Positions 34,123 to 55,264 of a DNA stretch of 62,351 nucleotides are shown here, piece by piece (position 1 is the stretch's first letter; the number at the start of each line of letters is the position of its first letter). Under the pieces are notes generated by a model. It was not told the DNA's origin, did no database searches, and was given only the letters and a program-made list of their open reading frames with translations. The DNA is from Lentihominibacter sp. GTDB lineage: Bacteria > Bacillota > Clostridia > Peptostreptococcales > Anaerovoracaceae. Location: positions 1 through 62,351 of the forward strand of contig JAZNNY010000037.1 of the NCBI GenBank assembly GCA_045580505.1, given 5' to 3'. The translations under genes were made by a program, and so were the position numbers.

Positions 34123-34171
34123 AGAATCTCCTCCCAATGCCGGTCCCGCATCGTCTGACGCAGCTACCGGC

Positions 34172-34827: not shown

Positions 34828-34830
34828 ATT

Positions 34831-35070: not shown

Positions 35071-35172
35071 ATTCGTAGCCCTCCCGGCTTCATTTTATCA
35101 CATCCCGCAAAAGCAGGAAAGGCTGCAGAGAATCTCCCTGCAGCCGTTTCGTCTCATGTGATCAGCTCACTT

Positions 35173-36939: not shown

Positions 36940-36952
36940 TCCAAGCCACCTC

Positions 36953-37348
36953 CTATTCAAACGTCAGGGCGCCGTGCGGGCAAGCCTTGACACAGTTCGG
37001 ATCGCCTTCGCAGGTGTCGCAGATGTAAGCAAACTTCTCGCGGATCTGGACCACATGCTTCGGGCACTTCTTAGCGCAGAGACCGCAGCCCTTGCACTTC
37101 TCCGGATCAACGTGGATCCAGCCATTGTCCATATCGATGGCATCGAACGGGCACGCCTTCATGCACATCCCGCACAGGATGCAGTAATTGTCGATGTACT
37201 TCAGTGAGCCGTCATCATAGCATGTCTCGATCGCGATCCGCGCCTTGGAAGGAATGTACTCACCCTCCTTGTAAGCGGAGCAGACCTGCGAACACAGCTG
37301 GCACCCGATACAAAGCGCCTTCTTGAATTTCAAACGTTTCGTCGCCAT
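36953..37348 (-). CDS. 4Fe-4S dicluster electron-transfer subunit of AOR
   Basis: Four Cys-cluster motifs; GGGAGAGG RBS before ATG 37348. Confidence 0.92.
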   Translation of the reverse strand: MATKRLKFKKALCIGCQLCSQVCSAYKEGEYIPSKARIAIETCYDDGSLKYIDNYCILCGMCMKACPFDAIDMDNGWIHVDPEKCKGCGLCAKKCPKHVVQIREKFAYICDTCEGDPNCVKACPHGALTFE

Positions 37349-37436
37349 AGCTTCCTCTCCCTTATTAAAAAACATTGTCCTTTTGCTCTGCCTCGTGCCC
37401 CCTGCCAGTAAACAAAAAAGCAAAGGGAACCAGACG

Positions 37437-37527
37437 GTCTCCTTTGCGCACTGGCGGGCTCCGGAATCACTCCCGAAACCTATCGCTCTGACCGGCACGC
37501 CGCGCGTGTCGAGAAAGAGTCGGAGTC
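37437..37527 (-). ncRNA. Variant Moco/Tuco-like riboswitch candidate upstream of the AOR operon
   Basis: CUCCGA...GACAC..UGCCGGU..CGAUAGG..GAGUGAUUC..CCGCC-N5-GCAAAGGAG; homologous to 55315-55400. Confidence 0.7.
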
Positions 37528-37536
37528 TTTTAATAC

Positions 37537-37565
37537 ATTATAAGATATTTTTATGATAATGGCAA
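37537..37565 (-). promoter_or_regulatory. Sigma-A promoter of the AOR operon
   Basis: TTGCCA-N17-TATAAT about 10 nt before the RNA element. Confidence 0.75.
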
Positions 37566-37580: not shown

Positions 37581-38069
37581 TCAGTCCTCGAGTTCGATCT
37601 TTTCCACCATCCGGATCCAGTAAGCGGAGTCCGATTCCGGAATGATGATCCGCACCGGGGCTTCCTCCTCCCCCAGCGGCTGCCCGTCGATTCCGAAGGC
37701 CAGGATGATGTCCTCGCTTCCAAGCACATCCGGTCCCAGTTTCACATCGTACTCGTCCTTAGCATAGATATGAATCTTCTTCACATCCGCCTGGCTCATC
37801 CCGAACTGGCTCAGCACCGTGTCCAGTGTCGGCCCGGTCGCCCGGACCACCCCGATCTTATCGCTCGTGCTCTCGGTCTTCTTCGTCACGCAGTCCATGG
37901 CCTTCAGGTCGGCGATGGTCAGCGTAATGTCATCGTCCGTAATCCCCGTCAGGGTGATCGTCTCGTTCTCATATCCCGAGATGTCGATGTCATCCGTGCC
38001 GCAGCCGCTCATGCAAAGGCAGGCCACCCCCAGCAGGACCGCCAGGATCAGTTTATTCCTCAACCACAT
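37581..38069 (-). CDS. Lipoprotein with one sulfite-oxidase-type molybdopterin-binding-like domain
   Basis: Lipobox ..MSGC; LTIADLKAM, G.TL..VL, AKDEY, ILAFGIDGQPL...PVRIII, WIRMVEKIE. Confidence 0.75.
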   Translation of the reverse strand: MWLRNKLILAVLLGVACLCMSGCGTDDIDISGYENETITLTGITDDDITLTIADLKAMDCVTKKTESTSDKIGVVRATGPTLDTVLSQFGMSQADVKKIHIYAKDEYDVKLGPDVLGSEDIILAFGIDGQPLGEEEAPVRIIIPESDSAYWIRMVEKIELED

Positions 38070-38361
38070 AGTACTTCCCCGTCTTCGGGTCCTGATAGAC
38101 CCGTCCCATATCCTTGAGATCTTCGGTCACCTCGGCGTCCTCTTCCACAGACTGGCCGATGTTATCAACCTCGTATTTCACTTCCTGCTTCTGAATCTCT
38201 CCGGTCTCGCTCACGTTCACATTCCAGCTGATGATCAGTGCCAGGAGCAGCCCGCATGCGAAAACCAGCATGGCGTCCGCCATGTTGCCCACGCCCTCCA
38301 TGGGGGAGAAGTCCTCACCGAGTTCCTTCATACGGAAGCTTTTATTGCTGTCCATCTTCAT
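38053..38361 (-). CDS. DUF2149-family protein (ExbD/MotB-like), copy 1
   Basis: EDFSPMEGVGNMADAMLVFACGL identical to copy 2. Confidence 0.85.
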   Translation of the reverse strand: MKMDSNKSFRMKELGEDFSPMEGVGNMADAMLVFACGLLLALIISWNVNVSETGEIQKQEVKYEVDNIGQSVEEDAEVTEDLKDMGRVYQDPKTGKYYVVEE

Positions 38362-39092
38362 CTCGGAAGCACCCCCTCCGGAGCAGCGGTCCCCTGCACC
38401 GCCCCCTGCGCTGCGGCGGCATCCTGCTCCGCCTTCTTCTTCTGCAGCTGTTTGTAGATCTTCTTGCGCTCCGCCTGCTGCACGGTCAGAATCGTTTCCA
38501 TGATGGTCTGCGTCCAGGACATGTACTGCTCGTACCAGCCTTTGCGTATGCCGGAGATGAAGTAGGAGACTGCGCCGCTGACCAGGCCCGCGATGGTCGT
38601 ATCAAAGGCGATCATCAGGGAGTCCGACAGGGTCTTGGTGTCGCCCTGGCCGAGGGCGATGAGTCCCGGCCCCAGCGGGATCAGGGTTCCCATCAGGCCG
38701 AACATCGGAGCGATCCGGGCGATGAGGTCTGTGATCTTGACCGTCCTCCTGTAGCGGTATTCTTCGTCCGCCGCGATCTGCCGCGCCAGGGCTTCCCGCA
38801 GGTCATCCGGAAGGGCCGTGCGCTTCACGACCTCCTGGTAGCCCTGCTTTTGCCTGGGCAGAAGGCCGCTGCCGTCGATGATCTTCTCCACGTCTGCGAT
38901 GGATTTGCCATGCAGACTGTCGACCAGTTCCGGTATGCTCACCTTCAGCAGCCGCCGCTCGGTCACCGCCTCCACCACGAAACTGCCGAGCATGACGATG
39001 GTCGCCAGAATCAGCAAAAGCAGTATGATGACGGTCGGGATCTGCAGCGATTCCGCAACCACCCTTAATGTGTCAATTAATGTGCTGGACAT
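38358..39092 (-). CDS. MotA/TolQ/ExbB proton-channel family protein, copy 1
   Basis: APMFGLMGTLIPLGPGL...AFDTTIAGL; overlaps the DUF2149 start. Confidence 0.9.
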   Translation of the reverse strand: MSSTLIDTLRVVAESLQIPTVIILLLLILATIVMLGSFVVEAVTERRLLKVSIPELVDSLHGKSIADVEKIIDGSGLLPRQKQGYQEVVKRTALPDDLREALARQIAADEEYRYRRTVKITDLIARIAPMFGLMGTLIPLGPGLIALGQGDTKTLSDSLMIAFDTTIAGLVSGAVSYFISGIRKGWYEQYMSWTQTIMETILTVQQAERKKIYKQLQKKKAEQDAAAAQGAVQGTAAPEGVLPR

Positions 39093-39112
39093 CTATGATT
39101 ACCTCCCAAGTA

Positions 39113-40546
39113 TTATCGTTTCCATCCCTTCAGAATCGTGCGGTATCTGCGGAAGCGGATGATCCCTCCCGCGCCGGCCGCCGCAAGCGCCGCAGCGGAT
39201 GCGCCGGCCGCAGTGCCCTGATGGTGGGTATCCTGCTCCTTCAGGGCTGCTTCGTTTTCTTCCATGGCGTGCTGGCCCACGCTCTGCTCCTGCGGCTTTG
39301 CTTCATCCACTCTGCCGCCGAGACTCAGCTCGCGCAGATGGACCTTCGCCTTCGTCTGCTCCGGTGCTTTTGTCGTTGTCGTCGTTGTTGTCGCCTGCTG
39401 TGTCTGCTCCTTCTCGTCGGAGGAAGTCTTCTGCGTCGCAGCCGCCCGGGTCCTTTCCTGTGTCGTCGTTTCCCTGCTCGCCTTCGCCTCCTGCTCTGTC
39501 CGCTTCGCCTTGCCCGTGCCGTTGATGGTCACAGAGGCGCTCATCCCATTCTCGGCAGTGACGGTGATGGTCACCGTGCCGGCCTTCAGAATCGTGACGT
39601 TACCGCTTTGATCAACCTTAGCGATGGACGGGTCGCTGGACGTCCACTTCAGCCTGCCCAGCGCCTTGCCGAAGTCCTTCGCAAAGAGCTCGTCTCCCGC
39701 AATGCTGATCTGCAGCTTCGTCACGCTGCCCACCTTCAGCTTCGAGTCCACCGGGTCGATCCCGATGCCGGTGACCGGCGAGCCTGCCAGGGTGACGTCG
39801 ATGCCGTAGATGCTGTGGACGGAGTCCATTGAGGAAACGTCTCCTCCCCCGTAGCCGGCTCTGGTCTGAACGCCCTCGTTTAGAGGCGTCTGTCCCATAC
39901 AGAAACGGTATGTTTTCTTCGTTTCCATCAGATCCGTCAGGTCGGGCGCATAAACGTATTTCCCCTTCTTTTCCGCAAACCTCAGTGCAAGTATGGATGG
40001 CACCGGCTGTGCATCGGCCAATGCTCCTTCCTTCGGTATCAGGGTTCCGTTTTCTCCGCTACTATATAGCGAAGATAGATATGGATAAAAGAATCTGTTC
40101 CCTTCTGTCAGGTGCTGGTCAATGGTAAAGTCCTTGGTGTACCCCGAATAGTTGTCGGTCGTTCGGAATGTTACGTAATTGACCGAATCCAGTTCTATAC
40201 CCGATGCTGCGATAATATCGGTTACCGCCGGCCCGTATGCCGCCATGGACATGACATCACCCACATTCGTAATGTTGGAATAATAGCATGTCTGTATCCC
40301 ACTTTCAGCCGCTATGGCCTCCAGGTCGCTTCGGCTGAATCTGGCCTTCTCCCGGATCATATCCCCGCGCTCGCCGAAGTACTGGACCCGCACGCTCAGG
40401 GTCTGTCCTGCTGTTTCCGCGTGGGCTTCCTGCACGAAGGCAGGCCAAAGCAGCACGCATTGTGCGATTGCAATGGCCACGGCGCAGACTGCCGCCGCAA
40501 TTCTGTACCAGGCGGATATGCAGTTGTCAGATCTGCCTTTGCTCAT
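39113..40546 (-). CDS. Exported protein: Moco-binding-like domain + Big_2 Ig domain + Thr-rich linker + C-terminal TM
   Basis: Signal ..AHA; FSRSDLEAI, GPAVTDII, TTDNY, YRFCMGQ; WTSSDPSIAKVD; AAGASAAALAAAGAGGIIRFRR. Start could be TTG 40552. Confidence 0.72.
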   Translation of the reverse strand: MSKGRSDNCISAWYRIAAAVCAVAIAIAQCVLLWPAFVQEAHAETAGQTLSVRVQYFGERGDMIREKARFSRSDLEAIAAESGIQTCYYSNITNVGDVMSMAAYGPAVTDIIAASGIELDSVNYVTFRTTDNYSGYTKDFTIDQHLTEGNRFFYPYLSSLYSSGENGTLIPKEGALADAQPVPSILALRFAEKKGKYVYAPDLTDLMETKKTYRFCMGQTPLNEGVQTRAGYGGGDVSSMDSVHSIYGIDVTLAGSPVTGIGIDPVDSKLKVGSVTKLQISIAGDELFAKDFGKALGRLKWTSSDPSIAKVDQSGNVTILKAGTVTITVTAENGMSASVTINGTGKAKRTEQEAKASRETTTQERTRAAATQKTSSDEKEQTQQATTTTTTTKAPEQTKAKVHLRELSLGGRVDEAKPQEQSVGQHAMEENEAALKEQDTHHQGTAAGASAAALAAAGAGGIIRFRRYRTILKGWKR

Positions 40547-40548
40547 CC

Positions 40549-41679
40549 TCAATATCCCAGTTCATCCCTCGTGAACGTCCTGCCGTAGGACAGTTCATAA
40601 AAAGCATCCACGTGTTCCTCCAGCGTCTTCCCGTCCATAAACTGCGGATGCATCACGTGCATCATATAGTCGATGCCCAGCGTGCTGACGACCCCGGGGA
40701 ATTCCCAGGAGTCCGCCTCGGCCGGCATTTGATAAACGTGCTTGTTCTTCACCGCGCTGATCTCGGACCAGGAGGGGTCCTGAAGGATATCCTCCGCGGT
40801 GTAGACCGCGCTCTCGCTGTTCGTGATAAAGATGTAGTCCGGGTTCCAGGCGAAGATCTGTTCTGCGCCCGCCGTCGGCCAGAGCTCCGTGGCCTTCAGG
40901 TCTGCCGCGCAGTTGACCGCCCCGGCCTGCTCCAGCATGATGCCCTGCAGCATGGAGCCGTCCGCGACCTTTCCAATGGAGGAGCCCATGACAATGGCCT
41001 TCGGTTTATCCGCATCGTCTATCTGCGATACAAGATTTCTTGATGCCTCGATCCGGGACTCGTAGTAGTCGATCAGCTCACCCGCCTTGTCGCGGGCGCC
41101 GCAGACCTTGCCCAGAAGATCCAGCGCTGCGACCATATCCTCCGGGGTCTCGACCTCGATGCCGATGGCGGGAATGCCGATGTTTTCCACCGCGTCGAGC
41201 GTCTTCACATCGCTGGCCTTGTGAATGAAAAGGTCCGGCTTCAGCTCGGCCAGTGCTTCGATGTCCGCCACGCCTTTGCCGACGTCCATGCAGTCCGCAA
41301 GCGACGGCTGCAGTTCTTCCAGGAAAGGCTCGCTCTTGCCGATGCCTTTGATCTTGTCGCCCTGATCGAGCGAGAGCAGAAAGCGAATGGCAACGCGGTA
41401 GCAGAGAGCGATGGTCTCGGGGTTCTTCTTCACTGTAACCTCACGGCCGGCCTGGTCGACGATGGTCATTTGGGCGTCATCTTCGGACAGGATGGTTCCG
41501 GCCGGCTCACCGCTTTCGGAGACAGCCGGGCTGCTTTGATCGGCACCCTCTTCTCCGCCCGCACTGCAGGCGGTCATGCAAAGGCAGGCCAGCCCCAGGA
41601 TCGCGCACAGAATCAGCGCCAGCATTTTTATTCGGTTTATTGACTGCTTTGTTGACTCTTTCATTGACTCTCTTACCAT
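40549..41679 (-). CDS. ABC substrate-binding lipoprotein, BtuF/FhuD (class III) type
   Basis: Lipobox ..MTAC; TIVDQAGREV, E.L..LKPDL, WNPDYI, AVKN..VY. Confidence 0.9.
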   Translation of the reverse strand: MVRESMKESTKQSINRIKMLALILCAILGLACLCMTACSAGGEEGADQSSPAVSESGEPAGTILSEDDAQMTIVDQAGREVTVKKNPETIALCYRVAIRFLLSLDQGDKIKGIGKSEPFLEELQPSLADCMDVGKGVADIEALAELKPDLFIHKASDVKTLDAVENIGIPAIGIEVETPEDMVAALDLLGKVCGARDKAGELIDYYESRIEASRNLVSQIDDADKPKAIVMGSSIGKVADGSMLQGIMLEQAGAVNCAADLKATELWPTAGAEQIFAWNPDYIFITNSESAVYTAEDILQDPSWSEISAVKNKHVYQMPAEADSWEFPGVVSTLGIDYMMHVMHPQFMDGKTLEEHVDAFYELSYGRTFTRDELGY

Positions 41680-41688
41680 CGTGCCGAT

Positions 41689-42474
41689 TTACTCCTTCAG
41701 CCCCGGCATCAGGCAGGCCGTCCGGCCCAACTGCTCCACCCACATCAGGTACAGTTCTACTCCATAGATTTCCCGCAGGTTTTCCTCGGTGATAATCTGC
41801 CGGCTCTCTCCCTGCATGATTTTCCCGTCCCTTCCGACGATGGCCGCCTGGTCTCCGAGGAGCAGGGTGTGGTCCGGGTTATGCGTGGTGATGATGACCG
41901 AGAAGCCCTCCGACGCCATCTGCTTTACCCGCTGCAGCACCCGCTGCTGGTTACCGTAGTCCAGGTGAGCGGTCGGCTCATCGAAGAGGACCGCCTTCGG
42001 CTGCTGGGCGATGGCCCGGGCGATCAGGACCTGCTGGCGCTCTCCGCCGCTGATGTTCTGATAGGATTTCTCCGCCAGGTGTCCGATGCCCATGCTCTCC
42101 AGGGCCTGCAGGGCAAACCACTCGTCCTCCTTCTTCGGCCGGGCGAACATGCCCATCTGGGGCGTGCGTCCCATCAGGACGAAATCCAGCACCCGGTAGT
42201 CGAAGGCCGGCGTGTGCACCTGCGGAACGTAGCCGATGAGCCGGGCGATCTCCCGCTCGCTCATCTCGTGCAAATCCCTGCCGCAGAGCCGGATGCTCCC
42301 GCCCTCCGGCTGCAAAAGCCCCGCCATGCAATTCAGCAGTGTAGTCTTACCCGCTCCGTTCGGGCCCAGGATGCAGAGGATCTCTCCCTCGCGCAGCTGC
42401 AGGTTCGCCTCGTCCAGGACCTTCCTGCCGCCCCGCTCATATGAAAATGTCAGATCTTTTACTTCGTAGATCAT
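41689..42474 (-). CDS. ABC ATPase, FecE/BtuD type
   Basis: GPNGAGKTT, SGGERQ, DEPTAHLD.GNQ. Confidence 0.95.
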   Translation of the reverse strand: MIYEVKDLTFSYERGGRKVLDEANLQLREGEILCILGPNGAGKTTLLNCMAGLLQPEGGSIRLCGRDLHEMSEREIARLIGYVPQVHTPAFDYRVLDFVLMGRTPQMGMFARPKKEDEWFALQALESMGIGHLAEKSYQNISGGERQQVLIARAIAQQPKAVLFDEPTAHLDYGNQQRVLQRVKQMASEGFSVIITTHNPDHTLLLGDQAAIVGRDGKIMQGESRQIITEENLREIYGVELYLMWVEQLGRTACLMPGLKE

Positions 42475-42495
42475 GTTCTTTTCCTTAATTATGCC

Positions 42496-43509
42496 CTACC
42501 TCAGCGTCCGCCGCTGCCGATACAAAAGCCATGCGAAGACCGGCGCCCCGATGATGCCGGTCAGGATGCTCACCGGCATTTCCGCGGGTCCGATGATCCG
42601 CGTCACGGTATCCACGAGCAGCATGAAAATCCCGCCCATCAGGATGGAAGCCGGAAGCAGGATCCGGTTGTCGGAGCCGACCAGCATCCGCCCGAAGTGG
42701 GGAATCACAAGGCCTACCCAGCCGATGGTTCCTGCGATGCAGACCGCCCCTGCCGTCAGCACCGTCGCGCACACGATGCAGACGCCCCGCAGCAGGCTCA
42801 CCTTCGCCCCCAGGCTCCTGGCCTCCTGCTCTCCGAGCGAGAGCACGTTGATCCACCAGGAAAGGAGCAGCAGAATGACCCCCGCCGCAATGCTGAGCGG
42901 GAGCACGCTGAGCACAGCCCGGTTATCCACATAGGCGAAGCTTCCAAGCTGCCAGTAGGTAATGGCCGCCAGCTGCGTCTGCGGATCTGCGATGTATTTG
43001 ATGAAGCCCAGGATCGAAGTCATGGCTCCGCTCACTATGATCCCGGCGAGCACCAGCATGATATTGGAATCAGACCGGAGCATCCGCGGAATCAGAACGG
43101 TCAGACTGACCGCAAGCACGCCGCCGATGAAGGCAAACCCCTGCACCAGGACTGCCGCGCAGGACAGCAGAATGGCGATGGCCGCCCCCACGCAGGCCCC
43201 GGCTGAAACTCCCAGGAAATCCGGCGATACAAGCGGGTTCTTGAAGATGCTCTGGTAGACCGCTCCGGACAGGGCCAGTGCCGCTCCGACGAGCACCGTC
43301 GCCAGCGTCCTGGGCAGGCGTACCCCGAGCAGAAGATTGGCGTCCATCGGATCTGCCTTTGCACCAAAGAGAATCGCAAAGACCTCTCCCGGGGACAGTG
43401 AGTACTTCCCCACGCAAAGGCCGGCCAGGCACAACCCCAGCAGCACCACAAGAAGGCCGGCGATGACCGGCCATCTTCTGGATTTCTGTTGTTTCCCGAA
43501 CATTTTCAT
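42496..43509 (-). CDS. ABC permease, FecCD/BtuC type
   Basis: RLPR, Q..F.NPL.SP..LG, G.IGWVGL.IPH; own promoter TTGAAT-N17-TATAAT at 43516-43544. Confidence 0.95.
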   Translation of the reverse strand: MKMFGKQQKSRRWPVIAGLLVVLLGLCLAGLCVGKYSLSPGEVFAILFGAKADPMDANLLLGVRLPRTLATVLVGAALALSGAVYQSIFKNPLVSPDFLGVSAGACVGAAIAILLSCAAVLVQGFAFIGGVLAVSLTVLIPRMLRSDSNIMLVLAGIIVSGAMTSILGFIKYIADPQTQLAAITYWQLGSFAYVDNRAVLSVLPLSIAAGVILLLLSWWINVLSLGEQEARSLGAKVSLLRGVCIVCATVLTAGAVCIAGTIGWVGLVIPHFGRMLVGSDNRILLPASILMGGIFMLLVDTVTRIIGPAEMPVSILTGIIGAPVFAWLLYRQRRTLR

Positions 43510-43620
43510 GTCTTGATTATATCTGATTTCAAAACAGCATTCAATGATACGGATTTGACCCGTTGTGTCTGCAGGAGTAGATGAGGACCAGCATTATGCT
43601 GATCCTCACTGCGTTTTACC

Positions 43621-46600
43621 TTACTTCTTCGCCTTGATCTTCTTTTTAGCTGAATACTTACCGTATACCTTCACCATCTTTCCTGCCGGGTTTTTCACCA
43701 ACTTGTATGGACGAATCTTGTAGTAGTACTTTTTCTTTGCCTTAAGTCCTCTGTTCGTGAATTTCACTCTTTTAGCATTGGGGATGGTCTTGATCAGTTT
43801 ATACTTACCATTCTTCTTTGTAGCACGGTAGATCGCATATCCGTCAGCATTTTTCACCTTTTTCCAAGACAGTTTTGCCTTCTTGCCCTTCAAGGCTTTC
43901 ACCTTGAATCCCTTGATTTTCATCATTTTGGCCTTGGCTGCCTTGACCGCCGCCACGTATGCGGCCTGCGCTTCTGCAGCCTTTTTCTTCGCAGCAGCTT
44001 TTTCATCCGCAGCTTTCTTGTCCGCCGCTGCCTTTTCATCTGCCGCGGCTTTCTGCTCAACCAGTGTGTCGATCGATCCCTTGGCCTGAGTGACAGCTGT
44101 ATCAATGGCATCAGCATCTGCTGAGTTTGTGATTGCAACAACTGCATCCAGTGCAGCCTTCGTTGCTGCCGCAATATCAGCCTTGCCTTTATTCTCCTCC
44201 AGATACTCCATGACAGCCTGGATTGCCTGTGCACGTTTCTCTGCCAACGCCTTCTCCGCAGCCTTCTCAAGGACTTCGGATGCAATGTCATTGATGCTCT
44301 GAACCGCTTCTGCAGTAATCGGAGCTACGTTTTCAATTTTTCCGATCTCATCGATCTTCGCCTTGGCAGCGTCTGCAATTTTGTCGATCTTGTTTTCTGC
44401 CGCCTTCTTTGCATCTTTGTCCTCAAGATCCTTCAAACTGTCTTTGGCAGTCCTGGACGCTGTATCAACGGCTTTTTCCGCTTCCGTTTTAGCTTCGGCC
44501 AGTTCCTGTGCCTTCTGCTCAGAGGTTTTGATCTGATCGATTACCGCCTTGGCCGCCGCAAGGGCTTCCTCGACTTTATTCAACTTGTCTGCCTCGTAGA
44601 TTGCTTTGGAGGCATTTGCTATCGCTGCGCCCAGTTCCTTCTGCTCAGGCTTATCGTAGTCCGCAGGGTCTGCGTAGGTCATAATCTCCTCGACCGCCGC
44701 ATCCTGAGCCAGTTCGACTTCAGTCGGAAGGTCGATCCGGATTTCCTTAACATCGCTTACCCAATTCTCGACGTTAACATCCTCCGCATCGCTCTGCCCG
44801 ATGACCAACTGCAACGGAAGCTTCGCGTTCTCACTGGATGACCATGCTATGATCGGCAGGTAGTTATCTTTATCCGCCGTCTCAATTATGCTAAGGTCAA
44901 ACTTCTTCTCCGTGTTATCAGTAGAGATCACTGTGAAGGATCTTGCATTCTTCGTCATGCCGATGATGCTGAACAGAACCTTCAGGGTCACACCTGTAAA
45001 TTCGGTCGTGCCGGTCTGTCCTTCTGCGTCTTTCCAGCTGTAGGACTCTACTGTGTTGTTATCTTTGATACCTTCTGTGTTCTTTAGCGATTTAATCGTG
45101 AAGTATCCATTCTTCACTGCCCCGTCACCATATACGGTAAAGGCTGTATCATCGGTCTTCTCTCCGATGGTTTCCTTCTTCGGCACCGCATCAATCTCTG
45201 CCAATGTTTCTGTCTTAACCGCACTGATCGCAGCCGAAGTCTTAGCGCTCTTGATCGATGCCTTTGCTGTTTTGATTGCAGACTTGATCGTCACCTTGTT
45301 CTCCGCTGTGTACTCAGTCAGATCAGCGCTTTCCTTGAGTTCCTCAATCGCTTCATACTGCTCAGTTTCCAAGGCAGTCGGCAGGTCGACGCGAATCTCG
45401 ACCACATCGCTTAGCCAACTTCCCTTATTTGGCGTCTCACGATCCGTCTGACCGATGACAAGCTTCGGATTGATCTTCTTGTTGTCAGGATCTTCGTCTG
45501 ACTGCCAAGCGATCATCGGCTTATTGCCATCAAGATCGACTTCCTCGATGTCGTCAAGATCCAGTTGTTTTTCTTTTCCATCGCTGGCGATGACCGTGAT
45601 ATATTTCACTTCATTCTCGATTTCCACGACATCCTTCAACAGGTTGTCCAGGCAGACGCCTTGGAAATCATTATAACCTATGGTTCCGCTCTTGTTCATC
45701 CAACGATAAGTCGCATCGACCTTCGTCACGCCTTCTGCGTTCTTAAGTGTCTTGACTGAGAAATATCCATTTTTCTTCACTCCTCTGCCATCGACGACCA
45801 GGGCTGCCGAATCCACGGTCTCACCTCCGACGGACTCTTTCGAGGATGCCGGTTCTTCTCCCAGCACCTGCAGGCCGCCGGAAGAACCGACATAGGCTGT
45901 TCCATCGTTCATAAAGGACAGGAAGTAAACGTTATTTCTGTTTTCGCTGCTCCAGGAGCCTGTCTCCTTAGCATACTGAGCGGAAACATTAAATGTTCCG
46001 TCCGCATTCGGCTTCGGATTGTCTACCTTGAGCACGCCGTCTGCTGAGGTACCAAACCAGAGTGCGCCGTCCTTATCCACGGCTACAACTCTGACCTCGG
46101 CTGTGTCCTTTCCGTCCAGGTAATCTCCGAAGACCTGATCGCCGGTGTACTTCGTCGGCTCACCTGTACCGTCCTTAATCTTCCAGATCGTTCCACCTTC
46201 ATTCTCCTGCAGGTTGGTGCCGCTGGCAACGACCCAGACGGTTCCCCTCTGATCGATGGCAATGCTGCGTACCCATGCCTGGGCCAGTTTGCTGGTCGAT
46301 CCATCTTTCGTCATTTCTCCGGTCACGACCGTCTTCTCGCTGACAACGCCATCCTTATCGATGTGGCAGAAGCCTCCGGTATACGGATCCGCTTCTGTTC
46401 CCGCGCCGTCCGGATAGAATCCAAGCCATGCGCCGCCTTCATCGTCCAGCGTGATCGTATTGATCGAGGTCGCCGGGAAGTCCTTGTTCTCTTTGTTATA
46501 CGTCGTCCAGGTGTCCGTCTGCGGATCGTAGATGGTCAGTCCACCGAAAGATCCAAACCAGACCTTGCCGTCCGTGCCGACCTTGATCGCCTGTACGTAG

Positions 46601-49600
46601 TTATCTGCAATCGTTGCCGGATTATCCTCCGCCTTATAGTGCGTGACCTTGCCGTCCTTGATGTACATGACGCCCTGGTTTCCGGACGGATCCGTGTAGG
46701 ACGCATTCTGGCTGACCCAGATGCCGCCATCCGCATCCGCTGCTGCTCCGGAGGTGAAATCCGTCTGCAGAGCAGGATCGCTCTTCGTGTTCAGCACACG
46801 GAAGGACCGGTTGCCGGCATCCTTGTAGAAGAGGCCGCCGCCGTAGGTTCCTACCCACAGGGTGTTGTCCGGATCCAGAACTGCCGAACGCACGCTGGAG
46901 GTCGCATATTCCTTAAACTTCGTTACCTCAGGCAGTTCAAGCGTAATCCCGTTGATATTGGTGCAGCGGTTGCGCCAGTCGGCCGTAGGGTCTTTGCCCA
47001 AAGCTTCGTTATAGTTTCTGTAGATTCTGATCACGGAGATATTCTTTGCCTCGGTCTTATCGACATCTTCGATATTCTCCCAAGCTTTGGTCTCCTCATT
47101 CCAGATCTGGTAAGCAACGAAATAGTTCTGCTTCGCAGCATCCTTCAGGGTGATATCCTTATAGGAAGCCTCCTCGTTCTCATATCCGTCTGTCGCATTC
47201 AACGTAATCTTCGTATTCTCAAGTTCTACGCCTTTAGCTGCAAGCAGAGCCTGCAGGAATATACCCTTGACTTTATCCGTTCCCTTCTTGTGAGTGAACG
47301 TCGCCTCAGCCTGTCCGATCTTATCTCCAGCTGCATTCTCCAGTTTGGAGATGTCGTCCGCCGACAGCTGGATATCCTCTTCCAGACCCTTAATCGTAAA
47401 GGCCGCCGTATCCTGAGCAGCGCCGGCCTCTCCCACGGTGATCTTGATCTTCTTCACGTAGGTCAAAGACGCGCCCTGGTTGTTATGAGTCACAAGACGG
47501 ATCGGGCCGCCGTTATTTCCAATCGTAGCGTCGTATCCTTCTGTGTTCCCATGAGACTTATCTCCGATGACCAGCGGAGCACCATTAACTCCGTAAGCCA
47601 GAATGATTGGAACATAGGACTCGCCATCCTTGACGCCATCCTGCAGCGCATCCATTCCGAAGATGGAACGCAGTTCCTTACTGAAACCGTCTGCAGCCGT
47701 GACATCGACAGTGATTGGATCATCGATTCCCTCGATACCGGCTGTTTCCTGCTTAATAAACTTCCAGAAGTTGATGCCTTCCCAGGTATCCATCTGGGTC
47801 GTCTTTGCCTTGATCTGCTCGATTAGGGATGTCTGTTCCTCGATGTCTCCAACGGTATAATCCTTATTTAACAGTTCCTTCCCCTGCTTGTCGACAACCT
47901 GCAGGTTAATATTCTCAGTCAGGTACTGTTTGTAAATCTCACTGACGCTGTGGTTCCAGCTGGTGATCTCGGATGCGGTCACTTCAATCGACTTGACCAT
48001 CTTCATGTTTTTGCCGCTGTTGACATCACCGGCCTCCGTCTGTCCAACTGCCAGACGAATCGGTCCTCCGTTGTTGCCGTAGTCTGCATTATATCCTTCA
48101 CTGGATTCTTCCGCGACCAAAGGCAGGCCATCTTCCTTATCTTCATCTCCTGCCTTTCCGGCTCCGTAGGCCAGAATCACCGGAAGATCCTCATCTCCGG
48201 TCCGCGTGTTCTTATATTTCTTGCGGATCTCAGACAAAGTGAATTCCTTCTTCTCATTGTCAGTCGTCGTGATGATGACCTTGTCTGCATTGCTCTTAAG
48301 GCCGACCGCTGTCGAGGTCAAAAGCGCATACAGATCGATTCCGCGATATCTGGTCTGAGTAGCTTCCGTCGCTCCGTCCTTCAGGATACTGTAATCTCCT
48401 GTAAAGGCGATCGTCTGCTTACCCTCCAGTTCGGAAACGGTGAAGTCTTTTCCCTCTGCCAGTCTGGTTCCTTCCCCGAAGATGTTGATTGTGTTGTCCT
48501 TATACGCATCGTATGGTGCCTTGGTGTGCGCGTATTTATCGGCGGACAGGTTCACCGTGATGGAATTGATTCCCGTGATCGTCTTCTCCGACATCTCCGT
48601 ATTGCCTTCTACGGTAGGGAAGGTCAGCTGCAGCGGACCGCCACTGTTCTTGATGGTTACGGTATTCTCGTAATCGGTTCCGGCAGCCAGCGTGACACTG
48701 TCCTCATAGCCGTCGGCTTGTTCCTTGCTTGCGACCATGGGAGATCCGTTCTTGCCGAAGGCGAGAACCGGCTTCAGTCCGCTCTTGCCGGTATCGGCGT
48801 TGCTTCCGGATGCTTTCAGGACATCCTCCAAGTTGAGGGAAATCGCATTCTTTCCATTGCTGAACGTGATGGTGCCCTTGTAGCCCGGAATTTCGACCAC
48901 ATCGGTCAGGAAATACTGCAGATCAACTCCCTCATAGAGGTCACTGTATACGATGTTGTTTTTTGATACACCGTAGAAATCTTTGATTTTTGCCTTTTTG
49001 AGCTGCGTTGCCGTCAGCTTGCCCCCGTAGATCAGGTCCTCCAGGTCGCCGACTGCGTAATCTTTCTCTTTCATTACAGCCGCGTCCGCGTCGGGTCCGT
49101 TCAGAACCTTAACACTCAGCTTGCTATCTGCCAGATTCTTATATACATCCTTATCGGAATACTTGTGCGTGCTGTAGTGGTACTTGTCCTCACCGACCAG
49201 AACCTTGTCCAGGAGCTTCGCCTGGTTGGACCCGTTGGCGTGGTTGTACTTTATCTTGCCGGAAATGATCCGCAGCGGACCTCCGTCATTCTGCAGTCCG
49301 GAAAGGTAGCCTTCCTGAGAGTCCTTCTCCACATACGGGTATCCGTTGACTCCATAGGCCACGAGGACCGGGTATCCAACGCGGAGCTTGTCTCCAGTGC
49401 TAACATCATTGTTCGTTCTGATGTTTTCATTTCCGACATACTTGCCGTCATTCAGATCTGCAGGATTTTTCTCATAGAATCCAAAGCTATCAGGATCCGC
49501 CACCTGCTTGGTTGTGAACTTATCCGTTGCCGCATAGCCATCCGTTGCGGTCGAGCTGACGATTGTTTCATCGTCGCTGGCAAAGCTTGCCGGAAGACCT

Positions 49601-51657
49601 GATTTCAAAAGCAGTTTCCACAGCTGTACGCCCTCATATTCGTTGACGTACCAGTAGGTAGAGTTGGCCAGACTGTACTCGTCCCGATAGCCCATCCCGT
49701 TGTTGTCCGGTTTGCCATCGGCATCGTAGGCGACCATATCCTCCAGTTGCTTCACAGTATAGTTGACTTCCCGTCCGATTTTCTCACCGGTAACCGTCAG
49801 CACATAGTTTGAAATGTCGGCTGACTGGTACGGATCTTTATCGTGCTTGTATCCGGGAGTTTCCGCTTCGGCCACATAAATGTATGCCATGTTTCCAAAG
49901 GTCGTATATCCGGTATTGGTATCTCCCGTAATAGCGCTCTTGTTATAGACAAGCTTAATGCAGCCGTCCTCATTACCCAGCGTTTTGTCCGCTCCTTCGC
50001 CGTTGTCGAAGACAAACGGCCGGATGTTCGTTCCGTCCTTATAGGACGTTCCGTAGGCGACCATGATTGGCGTATCAGTCTTGCTCGCCTCCTTAACCTG
50101 GTTAATGGAAAATTCAGCGATGGTGTTTCGGTTCCTGTTCTTAATCTGGACCTTCGCCGCTTTATCCGTCATTTTGATTCCGTTGTCCCCGGAAGTCATT
50201 TTGGTTAGTATGTAATTCAGGTCAATCCCTTCGTATTTTCTCGTTGTATCGACCCCGCTCCTCTTATCGGTATACTCCGCTCTCTTCACCCCGGCATCTC
50301 TGCCTTCCAAATCGCGAACGGATACCGGCACGCTCTTCTCAACGCCGGGGCCCTCTACGGTCAGAGTCGCGCCTGTGATTGCATCGATGTTGTACGGCGC
50401 GCTTCCTCCCTGTCCGCCGTTGGTGATGTGCTTATAAGGGCTGCTTGAAAAGTCCTCTCCAGAGGCCTTCGTGACGGTAATCTTATTAACCATCTTAGCC
50501 GGCTTTCCGTTCTCATCGCTTCCGTAAAGAGAGAACACGCCCCACTTCGTCTTGTCCTTTTTAGCTGTCTCGTAAATGCCGGCCAGATCCCCCGAGCTCG
50601 TGCCCTTCTCGTAGCCCAGCATGTAGTCATTGTCGATGAGTTGCTTTACGGTATAGCCGCTCGCCGCCACTTCATAGCCGTCTGCAGATTCGAATGTAAC
50701 AACATCGCTGTCATCATATCCGGCCAGCAGCTCAGCCATCGGTACGCCGCGGACGTACTCTGTGATGTCTGTACCACTTGAATTAGTAAAGGTGTACGCC
50801 TTCTCTGCATACTTCATCAACAGGACATCAGCTCTGGTATATCCGGTGCTTCCTACCGTGAGGACCGGATCCGTTACCTTAAACTTGCTGTCCTTGCCAA
50901 TCGGATTTCCTACCTGAACGCGATTGACAGACTTACTTTTGCTCTTCCCGTTAAACAGCGGGTAATTTCGGTCATCCGGGCTACTGTATTGTCCAACCAT
51001 GAGCCGCAGATAATCCTGCTCAACCGTCGCGGCCGGCATTTGCGGCAGTCCCGCCGCCGGATCATTCTCATCGATTTCATCTGTTTCGAAGGCCCAGCTG
51101 ATCAGCGCAGGAACTTCCACTCCCTTTGCCGGGTCGAAACTGTCAAAATAGTATCTTGGCTCATTCAGGCCTGGTTTCGGCGTTTGGGCACTGTCATCCT
51201 CGACATCATAAGTCTGTCCTTTAACAAACGTGCTGCTGTAATTATCCGATGCCAGAATGGCGATCGGATCCGTGATGTCTGATACCGACATCTGGCTTCT
51301 CTGGAGCAACACATCCACCGGGATGCCATCCGCAATAGCATAGGCCATATGCCTGTTGCCGTTGCTTTCTGATTTCCTTGCGGAATATTTCACCCCGGAA
51401 AGGGCTCCTTCCATTGCCTTGAGTTCGTCCAAAGAATAGGACTTTTCTTTTGATACATTGTCGGCTGAATAGGCGCCGCCTATCAGGCCCGTACCGGTCA
51501 CAACTACAGCCGGACTCCCCTGTACATCAAATCCGCCGCTTGCAGCATAGGAAATATTCCTGCTGCCCAGAGGCATCATAGTGAACACGAGAGCGACCGC
51601 CAGTATTGCTACCAGCAGCCTCGCCGCCGCAGTCTTGCATGCACTCGCTGTATGCAT
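43621..51657 (-). CDS. Giant secreted protein (2678 aa): about 10 Moco-binding-like domains, beta-propeller, helical stalk, Lys-rich FN3-like tail
   Basis: Signal ..SYA; recurring LxVxG..(Y/F)(T/S)xxxL..YxG(V/I)xL..(A/T)xDGY..LAYG.NG.P..GGP(I/L)RL..VxxIxV; LWVGTYGGGL/VWFGSFGGL/LWFGTSADGV blades. Confidence 0.8.
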   Translation of the reverse strand: MHTASACKTAAARLLVAILAVALVFTMMPLGSRNISYAASGGFDVQGSPAVVVTGTGLIGGAYSADNVSKEKSYSLDELKAMEGALSGVKYSARKSESNGNRHMAYAIADGIPVDVLLQRSQMSVSDITDPIAILASDNYSSTFVKGQTYDVEDDSAQTPKPGLNEPRYYFDSFDPAKGVEVPALISWAFETDEIDENDPAAGLPQMPAATVEQDYLRLMVGQYSSPDDRNYPLFNGKSKSKSVNRVQVGNPIGKDSKFKVTDPVLTVGSTGYTRADVLLMKYAEKAYTFTNSSGTDITEYVRGVPMAELLAGYDDSDVVTFESADGYEVAASGYTVKQLIDNDYMLGYEKGTSSGDLAGIYETAKKDKTKWGVFSLYGSDENGKPAKMVNKITVTKASGEDFSSSPYKHITNGGQGGSAPYNIDAITGATLTVEGPGVEKSVPVSVRDLEGRDAGVKRAEYTDKRSGVDTTRKYEGIDLNYILTKMTSGDNGIKMTDKAAKVQIKNRNRNTIAEFSINQVKEASKTDTPIMVAYGTSYKDGTNIRPFVFDNGEGADKTLGNEDGCIKLVYNKSAITGDTNTGYTTFGNMAYIYVAEAETPGYKHDKDPYQSADISNYVLTVTGEKIGREVNYTVKQLEDMVAYDADGKPDNNGMGYRDEYSLANSTYWYVNEYEGVQLWKLLLKSGLPASFASDDETIVSSTATDGYAATDKFTTKQVADPDSFGFYEKNPADLNDGKYVGNENIRTNNDVSTGDKLRVGYPVLVAYGVNGYPYVEKDSQEGYLSGLQNDGGPLRIISGKIKYNHANGSNQAKLLDKVLVGEDKYHYSTHKYSDKDVYKNLADSKLSVKVLNGPDADAAVMKEKDYAVGDLEDLIYGGKLTATQLKKAKIKDFYGVSKNNIVYSDLYEGVDLQYFLTDVVEIPGYKGTITFSNGKNAISLNLEDVLKASGSNADTGKSGLKPVLAFGKNGSPMVASKEQADGYEDSVTLAAGTDYENTVTIKNSGGPLQLTFPTVEGNTEMSEKTITGINSITVNLSADKYAHTKAPYDAYKDNTINIFGEGTRLAEGKDFTVSELEGKQTIAFTGDYSILKDGATEATQTRYRGIDLYALLTSTAVGLKSNADKVIITTTDNEKKEFTLSEIRKKYKNTRTGDEDLPVILAYGAGKAGDEDKEDGLPLVAEESSEGYNADYGNNGGPIRLAVGQTEAGDVNSGKNMKMVKSIEVTASEITSWNHSVSEIYKQYLTENINLQVVDKQGKELLNKDYTVGDIEEQTSLIEQIKAKTTQMDTWEGINFWKFIKQETAGIEGIDDPITVDVTAADGFSKELRSIFGMDALQDGVKDGESYVPIILAYGVNGAPLVIGDKSHGNTEGYDATIGNNGGPIRLVTHNNQGASLTYVKKIKITVGEAGAAQDTAAFTIKGLEEDIQLSADDISKLENAAGDKIGQAEATFTHKKGTDKVKGIFLQALLAAKGVELENTKITLNATDGYENEEASYKDITLKDAAKQNYFVAYQIWNEETKAWENIEDVDKTEAKNISVIRIYRNYNEALGKDPTADWRNRCTNINGITLELPEVTKFKEYATSSVRSAVLDPDNTLWVGTYGGGLFYKDAGNRSFRVLNTKSDPALQTDFTSGAAADADGGIWVSQNASYTDPSGNQGVMYIKDGKVTHYKAEDNPATIADNYVQAIKVGTDGKVWFGSFGGLTIYDPQTDTWTTYNKENKDFPATSINTITLDDEGGAWLGFYPDGAGTEADPYTGGFCHIDKDGVVSEKTVVTGEMTKDGSTSKLAQAWVRSIAIDQRGTVWVVASGTNLQENEGGTIWKIKDGTGEPTKYTGDQVFGDYLDGKDTAEVRVVAVDKDGALWFGTSADGVLKVDNPKPNADGTFNVSAQYAKETGSWSSENRNNVYFLSFMNDGTAYVGSSGGLQVLGEEPASSKESVGGETVDSAALVVDGRGVKKNGYFSVKTLKNAEGVTKVDATYRWMNKSGTIGYNDFQGVCLDNLLKDVVEIENEVKYITVIASDGKEKQLDLDDIEEVDLDGNKPMIAWQSDEDPDNKKINPKLVIGQTDRETPNKGSWLSDVVEIRVDLPTALETEQYEAIEELKESADLTEYTAENKVTIKSAIKTAKASIKSAKTSAAISAVKTETLAEIDAVPKKETIGEKTDDTAFTVYGDGAVKNGYFTIKSLKNTEGIKDNNTVESYSWKDAEGQTGTTEFTGVTLKVLFSIIGMTKNARSFTVISTDNTEKKFDLSIIETADKDNYLPIIAWSSSENAKLPLQLVIGQSDAEDVNVENWVSDVKEIRIDLPTEVELAQDAAVEEIMTYADPADYDKPEQKELGAAIANASKAIYEADKLNKVEEALAAAKAVIDQIKTSEQKAQELAEAKTEAEKAVDTASRTAKDSLKDLEDKDAKKAAENKIDKIADAAKAKIDEIGKIENVAPITAEAVQSINDIASEVLEKAAEKALAEKRAQAIQAVMEYLEENKGKADIAAATKAALDAVVAITNSADADAIDTAVTQAKGSIDTLVEQKAAADEKAAADKKAADEKAAAKKKAAEAQAAYVAAVKAAKAKMMKIKGFKVKALKGKKAKLSWKKVKNADGYAIYRATKKNGKYKLIKTIPNAKRVKFTNRGLKAKKKYYYKIRPYKLVKNPAGKMVKVYGKYSAKKKIKAKK

Positions 51658-51692
51658 CTTTCATCCTCCTTCTGCTTGCTAAAAGATAATGA

Positions 51693-53303
51693 TTATTTGA
51701 CTTTTTTATATTTCACAGCACTGTAACTGCTATATACGATACGTCCGGGAATCTTCCGGAATGCCTTGATTTTATAGTAGTATGTCTTTTTCTTTTTAAG
51801 TTTTTTATTCTTCCAACTGACTGTTGACCCCTTGGAAATGGTCTTAACCAACTTGTAGCCGCTTTTCTTTTTAGTAGAACGGTAAATCCGGTACCCTGAG
51901 GCGCCTTTTACCCTGTTCCATCTTAGAGTTGCAGTCCTTTTCTTGAGAGTGATTTTTTTTAGAACCGGTTTTGCAAGCGTTGGCGGTGTTATAGTTAGCT
52001 GTAGATCTTTGACCGACACATTTCTGATTGTGTATGCTTCATTTTTTACAGTTATTTCAAAACTGCTCTGGTTGAGTCCCGCCCCATACTTCCCTGGATT
52101 CGTCGCGGTAATCACCGTCGGCTTCTTCAGAGCAACTTCAACCAGATCATTGTGGGTTGACGACCAACTAAATCCACTGACGGTATGAGGTTTTCCATCA
52201 TATACCGCAGTTCCTGTTCTTCCCGTTATCTTAAGGTCGATGGGATTCCTGACCTGATACCTGAATTCTGTCACCTCACTGTCGCGCTTCCCATCTCCAA
52301 TCACCTTTGCTTTGATTACGTACTCCCCGGCTTCCATCGGTTTCGGCCGGTTCATCTTCTCTATGTCAGAAAAATCGTCGTCCTGATGTCCGTTGTTGTT
52401 ATAGTTGTACTGCGTTGATGACAGCGTTGGTTCGGACCCATCTGTAGTATAGTAGATCCAATATCTGGAGCCCCTCTTCTGGTATTCGTTCACCCCTCTC
52501 CGGAAGGTAATCTCGTCTCCGGTAAAAATGATTCCTGCCTTGGGGCTGGTTTCTTCCAGCGCATTCCATTGCGGAGCCTGTCCACTGCGAATAATAATGC
52601 AACTTCTCCAGGATGTCTCTGCGATAGGGTCGCTGATTGTTCTGGGCGGGTCTTTCAGCATATTCTGAACCCACTCAGGTTTGTTCTGTTCGCTTGGCAC
52701 AATCTGTCCGCAGAGGAACCTTCCTCCCTTTTTCTCATTTGTAGTGATGACCGGCGGGACCTTCTCTCTGTCCTCGTATAGCGGACTGGTTTCCGGCACT
52801 GCCTCTCCATACCAGTTGATTTCAGCGATTGCCTTCGGATAGTAATATCTGTCACAGAAAAGCTGACCTTTAGTGAACACGGCACGGTATGGCTCATCTT
52901 CGGAGTGTTCCCTGATCTCGATTACCTGATCCTCTGCGATCTCCGCGACCGATTTCGGAAGTCCTTCCCCCGTATCCTTCAGCGAAATATCCAGTATCCC
53001 CTCCACTGTCGCGCCTTCAATCCCTGTGACCTCTTCATAAGAAGGATGCAGATTTGTGTTCAGTCCGGAATACTTATACTCCCTTGGAGTCCCATTATTT
53101 TCTGCCTCTGCCAGTGCCTCAATTTCTGCTTTTGTAAATGACTTTAGAAGTTGATCATCGTAGTACACATCCAGAGCCGGAATTTCCGCAGTCGGTTCTT
53201 CTGCAAAGGCAGGTCCCGCCTTCGCCTGGCTCACGCCGGCGACAAGCAACAGAGTCGCCATGACCAGTATCGTTATGAACGTGTGCGTTTTGACCTTTGT
53301 CAT
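51693..53303 (-). CDS. Secreted protein: divergent Moco-binding-like domain + chitobiase/Fn3-associated domain + Lys-rich FN3-like tail
   Basis: Signal ..AFA; FTKAEIEAL, EGATVEGIL, GRFLCGQ; YYTTDGSEPT; GGAGG before ATG 53303. Confidence 0.7.
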   Translation of the reverse strand: MTKVKTHTFITILVMATLLLVAGVSQAKAGPAFAEEPTAEIPALDVYYDDQLLKSFTKAEIEALAEAENNGTPREYKYSGLNTNLHPSYEEVTGIEGATVEGILDISLKDTGEGLPKSVAEIAEDQVIEIREHSEDEPYRAVFTKGQLFCDRYYYPKAIAEINWYGEAVPETSPLYEDREKVPPVITTNEKKGGRFLCGQIVPSEQNKPEWVQNMLKDPPRTISDPIAETSWRSCIIIRSGQAPQWNALEETSPKAGIIFTGDEITFRRGVNEYQKRGSRYWIYYTTDGSEPTLSSTQYNYNNNGHQDDDFSDIEKMNRPKPMEAGEYVIKAKVIGDGKRDSEVTEFRYQVRNPIDLKITGRTGTAVYDGKPHTVSGFSWSSTHNDLVEVALKKPTVITATNPGKYGAGLNQSSFEITVKNEAYTIRNVSVKDLQLTITPPTLAKPVLKKITLKKRTATLRWNRVKGASGYRIYRSTKKKSGYKLVKTISKGSTVSWKNKKLKKKKTYYYKIKAFRKIPGRIVYSSYSAVKYKKVK

Positions 53304-53357
53304 CTGCTTTCCTCCAAAATGAAAAAGCCCCACACCGAAAACAAGCGCAGCCCTATT

Positions 53358-53387
53358 GAAAAACCGGTTTCCGAAAGGAAACCGGCT
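53358..53387 (-). terminator. Leader terminator (riboswitch expression platform)
   Basis: GCCGGTTTCC-TTTC-GGAAACCGGT followed by TTTT, between aptamer and start codon. Confidence 0.75.
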
Positions 53388-53437
53388 CATCATCAAATCA
53401 TCACTTCGACGCCACGATCTGAGTCATGGCATCCGCT

Positions 53438-53545
53438 GCCGCTTTTCTTTCCAAGTGTGGGAGGCATGGCCGTTTCCCGCCATACCCTAAACGCCTGTAG
53501 GCCGTAGACCGCTGCTGATCCGTAGGCCGTCGAGGTCGAAAAGGC
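53438..53545 (-). ncRNA. Moco (molybdenum cofactor) riboswitch, P3-containing type
   Basis: P1 CUUUUC/GAAAAG; GGCCUA..CUACGGCC P3; AGGGUAUGGC-GGGAAACG-GCCAUGCCUCCC-N6-GGAAAG; promoter TTGTCA-N17-TATAAT at 53568-53596. Confidence 0.85.
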
Positions 53546-53597
53546 ATGTTATTCTGTTTGTTGTTTTATTATACAAAAATTTTGATGTTATGACAAC

Positions 53598-55195: not shown

Positions 55196-55264
55196 AAACA
55201 AGTTGCTCCTTTTCGTAGTTACTGTTCCAGTTTAACAGATTCAAAGCCGCTTAGGAAGTTTTGA

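Follow-up and report, generated by a model that had tools for sequence, protein, structure and literature searches.

Which substrate is served by a nine-gene cluster that follows a molybdenum cofactor (Moco) RNA in Lentihominibacter sp. is the question raised by the stretch of DNA analyzed here (the window: all 62,351 nucleotides of contig JAZNNY010000037.1, assembly GCA_045580505.1). The window is contig C37 of a 2.17-Mb host genome (G000) that is 87.6% complete. An earlier note, made from the window alone, had proposed a surface relay, a motor, and an ATP-binding cassette (ABC) importer that scavenge a pterin cofactor or its metal. Scans for open reading frames (ORFs) and for Pfam and NCBIfam models confirmed nine genes on one strand (minus), in the order that the note had stated (Table 1). 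From sequence comparison, the cluster is a real, conserved, and previously undescribed uptake-type system that resembles a riboswitch-controlled vitamin salvage relay; its capture domain is new, its substrate probably so, and its motor is left unexplained. We favor the reading that the operon imports a ready-made tungsten or molybdenum (W/Mo) pyranopterin cofactor or a late pterin intermediate. Bacteria are generally taken to synthesize their own Mo/W cofactor. Neither a bacterial Moco importer nor this cluster was described in the literature searched (titles and abstract openings, with subscription papers mostly outside), and a 2026 review, in the sections available, gives the question of how pterins cross the membrane as unresolved (PMC13259868).

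The Moco riboswitch that had been placed at the head of the cluster scored 57.1 bits against a cut-off of 36 (RF01055) and is the sole copy found in the host genome. Stem P3 is absent from all 23 aligned cluster RNAs (window and 22 related); this P3-less variant has been linked to tungsten-cofactor genes (PMC2408646, in part). Only 1 of 200 shuffles folds as well as the hairpin that follows in the leader, and the RNA may end transcription there, turning the cluster off, when cofactor is plentiful. A GTDB scan yielded 38 related loci (close carriers; G and L numbers are our labels for genomes and loci). Twenty-nine show the full order permease, ATPase, substrate-binding lipoprotein (SBP), anchored protein, exbB, DUF2149, lipoprotein, one of them with permease and ATPase read as a single ORF; seven of the other nine are cut by a contig end and two miss the ABC genes. 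A Moco RNA above cut-off lies on the same strand within 17 kb upstream in 13 of the 38, or 11 of the 18 whose contigs are long enough, and 22 have an AOR gene no more than 10 kb away. Both the conservation of the cluster and its association with Moco RNAs, which the note had anticipated, are borne out.

Outside the family, the anchored-type domain was found in 24 of 400 sampled genomes of the phylum, from 14 other families, and 20 cluster regions from 19 of these 24 carriers were examined. Moco RNA is present in 14 of the 19 genomes and an ECF S component in six; ExbB and DUF2149 are present in 15, always directly after an SO-domain gene (SO, sulfite oxidase; see below), and no FecCD permease was seen in the regions from the 19. 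ECF versions also occur within the family itself, with an S component (PF09819) that is fused to an SO domain in L078. The constant element is thus the SO domain, an importer, and a Moco RNA, and among these genomes the FecCD version of the window is a lineage-specific form. Cobalamin riboswitches over homologous clusters, which would have pointed elsewhere, did not turn up: none directly leads an SO-domain gene in any region scanned, and RF00174 was not found in the window. Two phylum regions do contain a cobalamin switch, one leading cobT and the other a separate upstream gene group, and the nearest permease outside the set (G148, 53–54%) is under a cobalamin switch with no SO gene. The fold, a link to Mo/W-cofactor regulation, and an uptake role, as the note had them, are supported.

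The second element, an SO-type domain shared by four exported proteins, was also upheld. The note had placed the domain in four proteins at different predicted depths; the four proteins stand, but the 2678-aa giant alone has ten of the 13 SUOX-fold domains, along with a Reg_prop beta-propeller at about aa 1586–1935, and the other three proteins have one each. The Pfam profile PF00174 scored 46 bits on the lipoprotein and 64 bits on the giant (over the whole protein), and the same scan gave no match in the 567-aa or the 479-aa protein. Pairwise BLAST among the window proteins gave no link among SO domains, a lipoprotein hidden Markov model (HMM) scored only weakly on the other three proteins, and single-sequence PDB searches gave no SUOX match under E 0.1. 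BLAST and the lipoprotein HMM being insufficient, profile-profile and structure comparisons were needed. With alignments built from related loci and four unrelated domains as controls, the N-domain of the anchored 479-aa protein matched that of the 567-aa protein at 99%, giant repeat 1 at 98%, and the lipoprotein at 92% (controls, 0–4%), and the same comparison joined all ten giant repeats to one domain family.

Predicted structures agree with these profiles. The lipoprotein model (pLDDT 90) best matches PruR (7kom and 7kp2; TM 0.80 and 0.78 by target; 7kom at E 4e-8, rmsd 2.2), followed by sulfite dehydrogenases, and a database look-up of a lipoprotein homolog gave PF00174 clusters only. For the AlphaFold model of the anchored N-domain (pLDDT 91), SUOX and PruR chains account for all of the top ten VIA-align matches (Z 7.6–11.3, rmsd 2.7–3.2 over 126–135 residues), and the first other fold scores Z 5.6; Foldseek gave no match for this model at E ≤ 0.001 (best, 7kou at E 0.012). 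The expectation that the domains adopt the SO fold is therefore supported by structure matches. Lipoprotein residues D105, Y107, and W151, invariant in 44 of 44 alignment rows, correspond by motif position to N102, Y104, and W160, the pterin contacts reported for PruR (PMC11194511, in part).

PruR, the nearest fold, binds simple pterins (PMC11194511, in part), and the ligand here could likewise be a plain pterin, a folate, or a flavin rather than a metal cofactor, with the domains working in salvage or sensing in the manner of PruR. The phosphoesterases, ECF modules, and apbE genes of related clusters would fit flavin handling too. But the regulator found is a Moco RNA, in none of the scanned regions did an FMN or THF riboswitch reach cut-off, and the Trp that PruR has at the Cys position is Ser in the lipoprotein. 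A PruR-type operon was not seen either, since none of the cluster neighbors is a DcpA-type cyclase or kinase. We consider a simple ligand scarcely likely.

Whether the domains are enzymes or binders turns on the molybdenum ligand and on export. Sulfite oxidase family enzymes are exported loaded, via the twin-arginine translocation (Tat) pathway. Ser69 of the lipoprotein aligns, weakly, with the Mo-ligating Cys of SoxC, and T68-S69-D70 is invariant in place of the Pro-Trp motif of PruR. The Mo-ligand window contains a Cys in 1 of 238 domains of the giant type, 5 of 63 of the lipoprotein type, 12 of 59 of the anchored type, and 6 of 70 of the secN type. No Tat motif ([ST]RRxF) was found in the first 45 residues of 11 proteins, from which it follows that the SO-domain proteins are probably exported unfolded and empty. 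Active sulfite-oxidase enzymes were rejected on the missing Cys and Tat signal, and the exported SUOX-fold domains are likely to be binders.

An extracellular redox system, in which SO-domain pterin or cofactor and a covalent flavin form an electron path and uptake is secondary, draws on a feature newly seen in the giant. A D-x-I-T-G-A-T sequence at aa 425–431 is intact in 15 of 17 covering homologs (G to S in the other two), is accompanied by a weak Pfam FMN_bind match (E 0.096), and fits [S/T]GA[S/T], the ApbE flavinylation target motif (PMC8238504, in part). The host has one apbE homolog (contig C27, 35% identity), apbE lies within the operon in 4 of the 38 loci, and FMN_bind-SO fusions occur in L063 and L064; in G001, apbE, NusG_II, and PF07456 genes follow the ECF module. 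A "GEGP motif diheme protein" model gave a match to the giant as well, below its cut-off. Because the flavinylation-like motif shares residues with the first strand of repeat 3, flavinylation is only a lead. Together with this overlap and the two substitutions, the near absence of the Mo-ligand Cys from giant-type domains, the lack of Tat motifs, and partners that are constantly importers, not membrane electron carriers, make a redox role very unlikely.

The importer itself is a complete type II ABC set: a PF01032 permease, an ATPase, and a PF01497 lipoprotein. The note had warned that the ABC and motor genes have their own promoter; a promoter-like site does precede the permease, but Moco RNA stands immediately 5' of the ABC genes in G097, G051, and G120 and of the giant gene in G008, G001, G048, G097, and G173, and the gap before the permease is at most 37 bases in 5 of 21 relatives. 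Relatives with the RNA before the ABC genes and with short gaps mean that a separate permease promoter is no general feature, which eases the caveat. The two large surface genes have a GC content of 47%–51% (52%–61% at third codon positions) and the ABC and motor genes one of 53%–62% (70%–84%); since the same arrangement occurs in G153, this is no assembly join.

On the SBP, all NCBIfam heme, siderophore, and B12 SBP models fell far under cut-off (28 bits against 234 for BtuF). These scores bear on the proposal that the cluster imports iron or another metal chelate under Tuco control, supplying Fe-S clusters for tungsten enzymes, as put forward for FetABC1 and FetABC2. Two FecCD-type transporters behind P3-less switches have been read as iron importers (PMC11725836, in part), and ExbB plus DUF2149 make up hmuU/V of the Bacteroidota heme operon (PMC10434189, in part). 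The FetABC assignment, though, rests on annotation and total cell iron in the sections available, and fetABC1 rose on tungsten limitation (PMC11725836), which would be expected of a W-cofactor importer. Iron import would also leave the SUOX-fold arrays unexplained, and we hold it to be highly improbable.

Among solved structures, the third-best relative of the SBP is HI_1472 (E 3e-17, 65.6 bits), a distant match. HI_1472 is MolA of Haemophilus MolABC, a molybdate/tungstate importer. This relative suggests another substrate, namely tungstate, molybdate, or a W/Mo chelate taken up with high affinity by a MolABC-like ABC importer, the SO domains trapping metal. Moco RNAs often precede oxyanion transporters (PMC2408646, in part), and the host has an AOR without a PF12849 (TupA-type) match at its 87.6% completeness. 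Directly upstream of two phylum clusters (L123:5643–6839 and L127:2848–4032) lies a ModE-type helix-turn-helix fused to a TupA-like domain. Yet the host is already equipped with modABC and a second modA, tupA-type ABC genes adjoin SO clusters in G085, G032, and G001, and a pterin-type fold with vitamin-type ECF partners suits an organic ligand better. PF12849 also matches PstS-type proteins, so matches in G097, G074, and G173 were not counted as TupA.

The distribution of synthesis genes bears on whether intact cofactor or bare metal is imported. In a sample of 150 genomes of the family, 45 have AOR, and a lipoprotein-profile match goes with AOR (13 of 20 genomes versus 32 of 130; kin are not independent). 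In 8 of these AOR genomes no moaC was detected. Five of the eight combine an SO gene and an importer with a Moco RNA, namely G097, G051, and G120 with FecCD (98%, 98%, and 90% complete) and G008 and G074 with ECF (96% and 87%). Matches to PF00994 in the five were CinA only (G097, G008, and G074) or none (G051 and G120), that is, no MoeA or MogA was found, and the same search recovers MogA and a short MoeA in G000; moaA was likewise not found in the three of the five that were tested. Among the 38 close carriers, 11 yielded neither moaA nor moaC; nine of these have at most a CinA-type PF00994 match (confirmed by Pfam for G165 and G097/G184, the others being called from match length), G172 has none, and G154 has one of MoeA length. 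Outside the family, this pattern of synthesis genes not found recurs in G514 and in G293, a genome of two contigs (98%). Without MoeA or MogA, bare tungstate would be unusable, and finished cofactor would be needed if the AORs work. Of the two substrates that the note had left side by side, cofactor or metal, import of the intact cofactor is favored by carriers that have AOR but yielded no moaC, MoeA, or MogA. Such carriers could not use the bare metal, and oxyanion uptake is accordingly unlikely, if the least improbable of the rivals. In two further AOR genomes with no moaC match (G029 and G109), no SO system was found and MoeA-type genes are retained, a hint that an earlier intermediate is taken up.

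Several observations weigh against import of an intact cofactor. The loss of moaA that the note had looked for was rejected in the host, which has moaA, moaC, MOSC-mogA, a short moeA-like gene, and modABC, and moaC was found in 26 of the 38 close carriers and 20 of the 24 phylum carriers. The 38 come without completeness figures. Gaps in metagenome-assembled genomes can conceal synthesis operons. SO genes or ABC-subclade genes occur in 5 of 8 moaC-less and 10 of 37 other AOR genomes (P = 0.09, a weak difference); the permease subclade alone gives 3 of 8 and 1 of 37 (P = 0.014), and both comparisons are post hoc and among kin that are not independent. A permease tree was uninformative, with a branch length of 10 for two rows and low support. 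G049 (99% complete) has AOR, no moaC, SO match, or Moco RNA found, and a PF00994 match of CinA length only. Seven of the 18 long-contig carriers miss the Moco RNA; one has a weak copy, and the other six start with an NTPase_1 gene and gave none upstream even by a tailored RNA model. Free Moco is oxygen-labile. Most giant repeats keep the PruR triad only in part, as do the other non-lipoprotein domains, and the PruR cleft is reported to be too short for Moco (PMC11194511, in part).

The host synthesis operon (L007:8463–14789, contig C30 of G000) has a short MoeA-like gene without PF03453 and a MOSC-MogA fusion; moaD and moaE were not noticed there, though no search was aimed at either. In L047–L052, L059, L087, L090, and L072, an NTPase_1 (PF03266) gene stands at the head of the importer genes or beside them, and ECF versions come with phosphoesterases (PF00149 and PF01663), in one case (L078) as a fusion with the T component. 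These could serve trimming and re-activation in salvage.

The putative motor consists of an ExbB-type PF01618 protein and a partner with a conserved membrane Asp (DUF2149). That it belongs to the system, as the note had claimed, agrees with its position after a stalked SO-domain protein in 37 of the 38 close loci and in all 15 phylum loci that have the pair; on the other side, minimal forms in G051 and G120 lack it, and it must be regarded as accessory. Pfam scans revealed no TonB-type transducer or outer-membrane receptor in the operon. The 479-aa protein had been described as C-terminally anchored; a conserved Ala/Gly-rich segment and a basic tail were found, but the hydropathy of the segment is below the threshold used, so that membrane tethering is only inferred. 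A second exbB (59%–64% to the first) and DUF2149 (60%) lie at 23726–26932 (minus strand), after a stalked protein of 536 aa whose C-terminal segment is similar and in which no SO domain was detected (single sequence, low power). Next in line after this second pair come a methyltransferase, xdhC, and a fusion of MobA-like and histidine-phosphatase parts.

Intact cofactor, if it is the substrate, would be caught at the wall and membrane by exported Cys-less SO domains, which may reach their fold outside the cell, still empty, and bind pterin in the manner of PruR. The ligand could then move from the wall arrays to the stalked protein and the lipoprotein and on to the SBP, and the type II ABC importer would drive its entry with ATP, providing cofactor for AOR and the MOP-like enzyme. 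Most speculatively, ExbB/DUF2149 might use ion flow to move the stalked protein or free ligand, and a covalent flavin on the giant might keep the cofactor reduced. In this cofactor-making host, uptake would be optional salvage. A broader scenario is possible, although we put it forward tentatively: W/Mo-pyranopterin as a vitamin shared among anaerobes, including those of the gut, collected and protected by the ten domains and covalent flavin of the giant, with ExbB/DUF2149 pulling the stalked receptor in TonB-like fashion without an outer membrane, and ABC or ECF importers feeding tungsten enzymes even in cells that lack synthesis. Were there a dedicated importer, the Mo/W cofactor would become a cross-fed vitamin, like B12, and genomes with tungsten enzymes yet no moa genes would be explained. 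Tuco-controlled "iron" transporters would be reassigned, many surface proteins mislabeled "molybdopterin-dependent oxidoreductase" would gain a role, and ExbB/DUF2149 function would have a simple single-membrane test bed.

Table 1. Features of the cluster and its surroundings in the window
Feature	Positions	Strand	Remarks
Sigma-70-type promoter-like site, TTGTCA-17-TATAAT	53568..53596	-	11/12; immediately 5' of RNA motif
Moco RNA motif RF01055 without stem P3 (tungsten-linked "Tuco" variant)	53428..53553	-	Rfam; P3 rule from PMC2408646 (in part)
Hairpin, 12 pairs into U tract; predicted terminator-type expression platform	53358..53388	-	z -3.56
Exported protein, ~536 aa (567-aa ORF): one SUOX-fold domain, Fn3-associated domain, Lys-rich C-terminal module	51693..53303	-	longest frame reaches 53396; start probably ATG 53303
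Exported giant, 2678 aa: ten Cys-less SUOX-fold repeats, Reg_prop beta-propeller, helical spacers, Lys-rich Fn3-like C-terminus	43621..51657	-
Flavinylation-like motif in giant, aa 423–433	50359..50391	-	junction of repeats 2/3
Strong hairpin without U tract	43582..43608	-	z -5.77; gap between giant gene and permease
Internal promoter-like site, TTGAAT-17-TATAAT	43516..43544	-	10/12; before permease; similar site in 8/21 relatives
FecCD/BtuC-type permease, 337 aa	42496..43509	-	PF01032
ABC ATPase, 261 aa	41689..42474	-	Pfam/NCBIfam
Substrate-binding lipoprotein (SBP)	40549..41679	-	PF01497; nearest solved relatives 4hn9, 4ovk, HI_1472 (3psa/3psh)
479-aa protein: signal, SUOX-fold domain, Big_2, Thr/Gln stalk, conserved Ala/Gly-rich C-terminal segment and basic tail (predicted anchor)	39113..40552	-
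MotA/TolQ/ExbB-family protein, 244 aa	38358..39092	-	PF01618
DUF2149 protein, 102 aa	38053..38361	-	conserved Asp where membrane segment begins
Lipoprotein, 162 aa: single SUOX-fold domain nearest PruR	37581..38069	-	invariant D105, Y107, R140, W151, R153; Ser69 at Mo-ligand Cys position
Downstream context: ferredoxin, AOR, mobB, moeB/thiF	33115..37565	-	own promoter-like site 37565-37537
Divergent xanthine-oxidase-family molybdoenzyme (MOP-like), context	55791..58799	+

Several other features of the window stand apart from these genes. Just 5' of the riboswitch, at 53675–55201 (minus strand), is a NirB/NADH-oxidase-like flavoprotein with short Cys-containing tandem repeats, and NirB/NADH-oxidase-like genes also adjoin the cluster in L013, L018, L023, L024, and L053. 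A subtilase and exported proteins of 529 and 1135 aa (16584–20603 and 58941–62348, minus strand) end in Lys-rich modules, as both large SO proteins do, and these modules are probably a family-wide wall-binding tag. A 1002-codon frame antisense to the MOP-like gene (55797–58805, minus strand) has no Pfam or NCBIfam match and is probably a shadow frame. A GA-cis RNA (RF02987, 37 bits) lies right after groEL at 5904–5990 (minus strand).

An architectural parallel is Isd/NEAT, the Gram-positive heme relay, in which repeated binding domains at the wall and membrane feed a type II ABC importer; here no NEAT domain or LPxTG sortase anchor was found in the cluster proteins, and Isd is not known to have a motor. 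BtuFCD and group I ECF modules such as YkoEDC are riboswitch-controlled cofactor importers and have in common with this cluster a type II ABC or ECF importer under a cofactor-sensing RNA, but the switch and the capture domain differ, and large surface arrays and a motor pair are added; the B12 importer BtuFCD is further set apart by the RF00174 and BtuF results above. Haemophilus MolABC (HI_1472; 3psa/3psh) shares the type II ABC and PF01497 SBP, distantly, and is not known to have a surface relay. Sulfite oxidase family enzymes (SorA and MsrP/YedY) have the same fold, with the Mo-ligating Cys and Tat export that are absent here. In the hmuYRSTUV heme operon of Bacteroidota, MotA/ExbB and DUF2149 (HmuU/HmuV) also end a cofactor-uptake operon, but that host has an outer membrane and TonB receptors (PMC10434189), and here, with neither, the pair follows a stalked SO-domain protein. 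FetABC1 and FetABC2 of Eubacterium limosum resemble the cluster in a FecCD-type ABC of similar sizes, a P3-less Moco RNA, and a gut anaerobe with AOR-family enzymes; the sections available list three or four genes and no SO-fold, ExbB, or DUF2149 protein (PMC11725836). PruR (7kom, 7kp2, 7kou, and 7rkb), like the lipoprotein, is an exported Cys-less SUOX fold with the Asn/Asp-x-Tyr and Trp positions; as described in part (PMC11194511), it has one domain, passes its signal to DcpA in Proteobacteria, and carries Trp in place of the Cys, whereas the proteins described here have as many as ten repeats, the lipoprotein has Ser in that place, and the system is linked to importers and a Moco RNA, in Bacillota.

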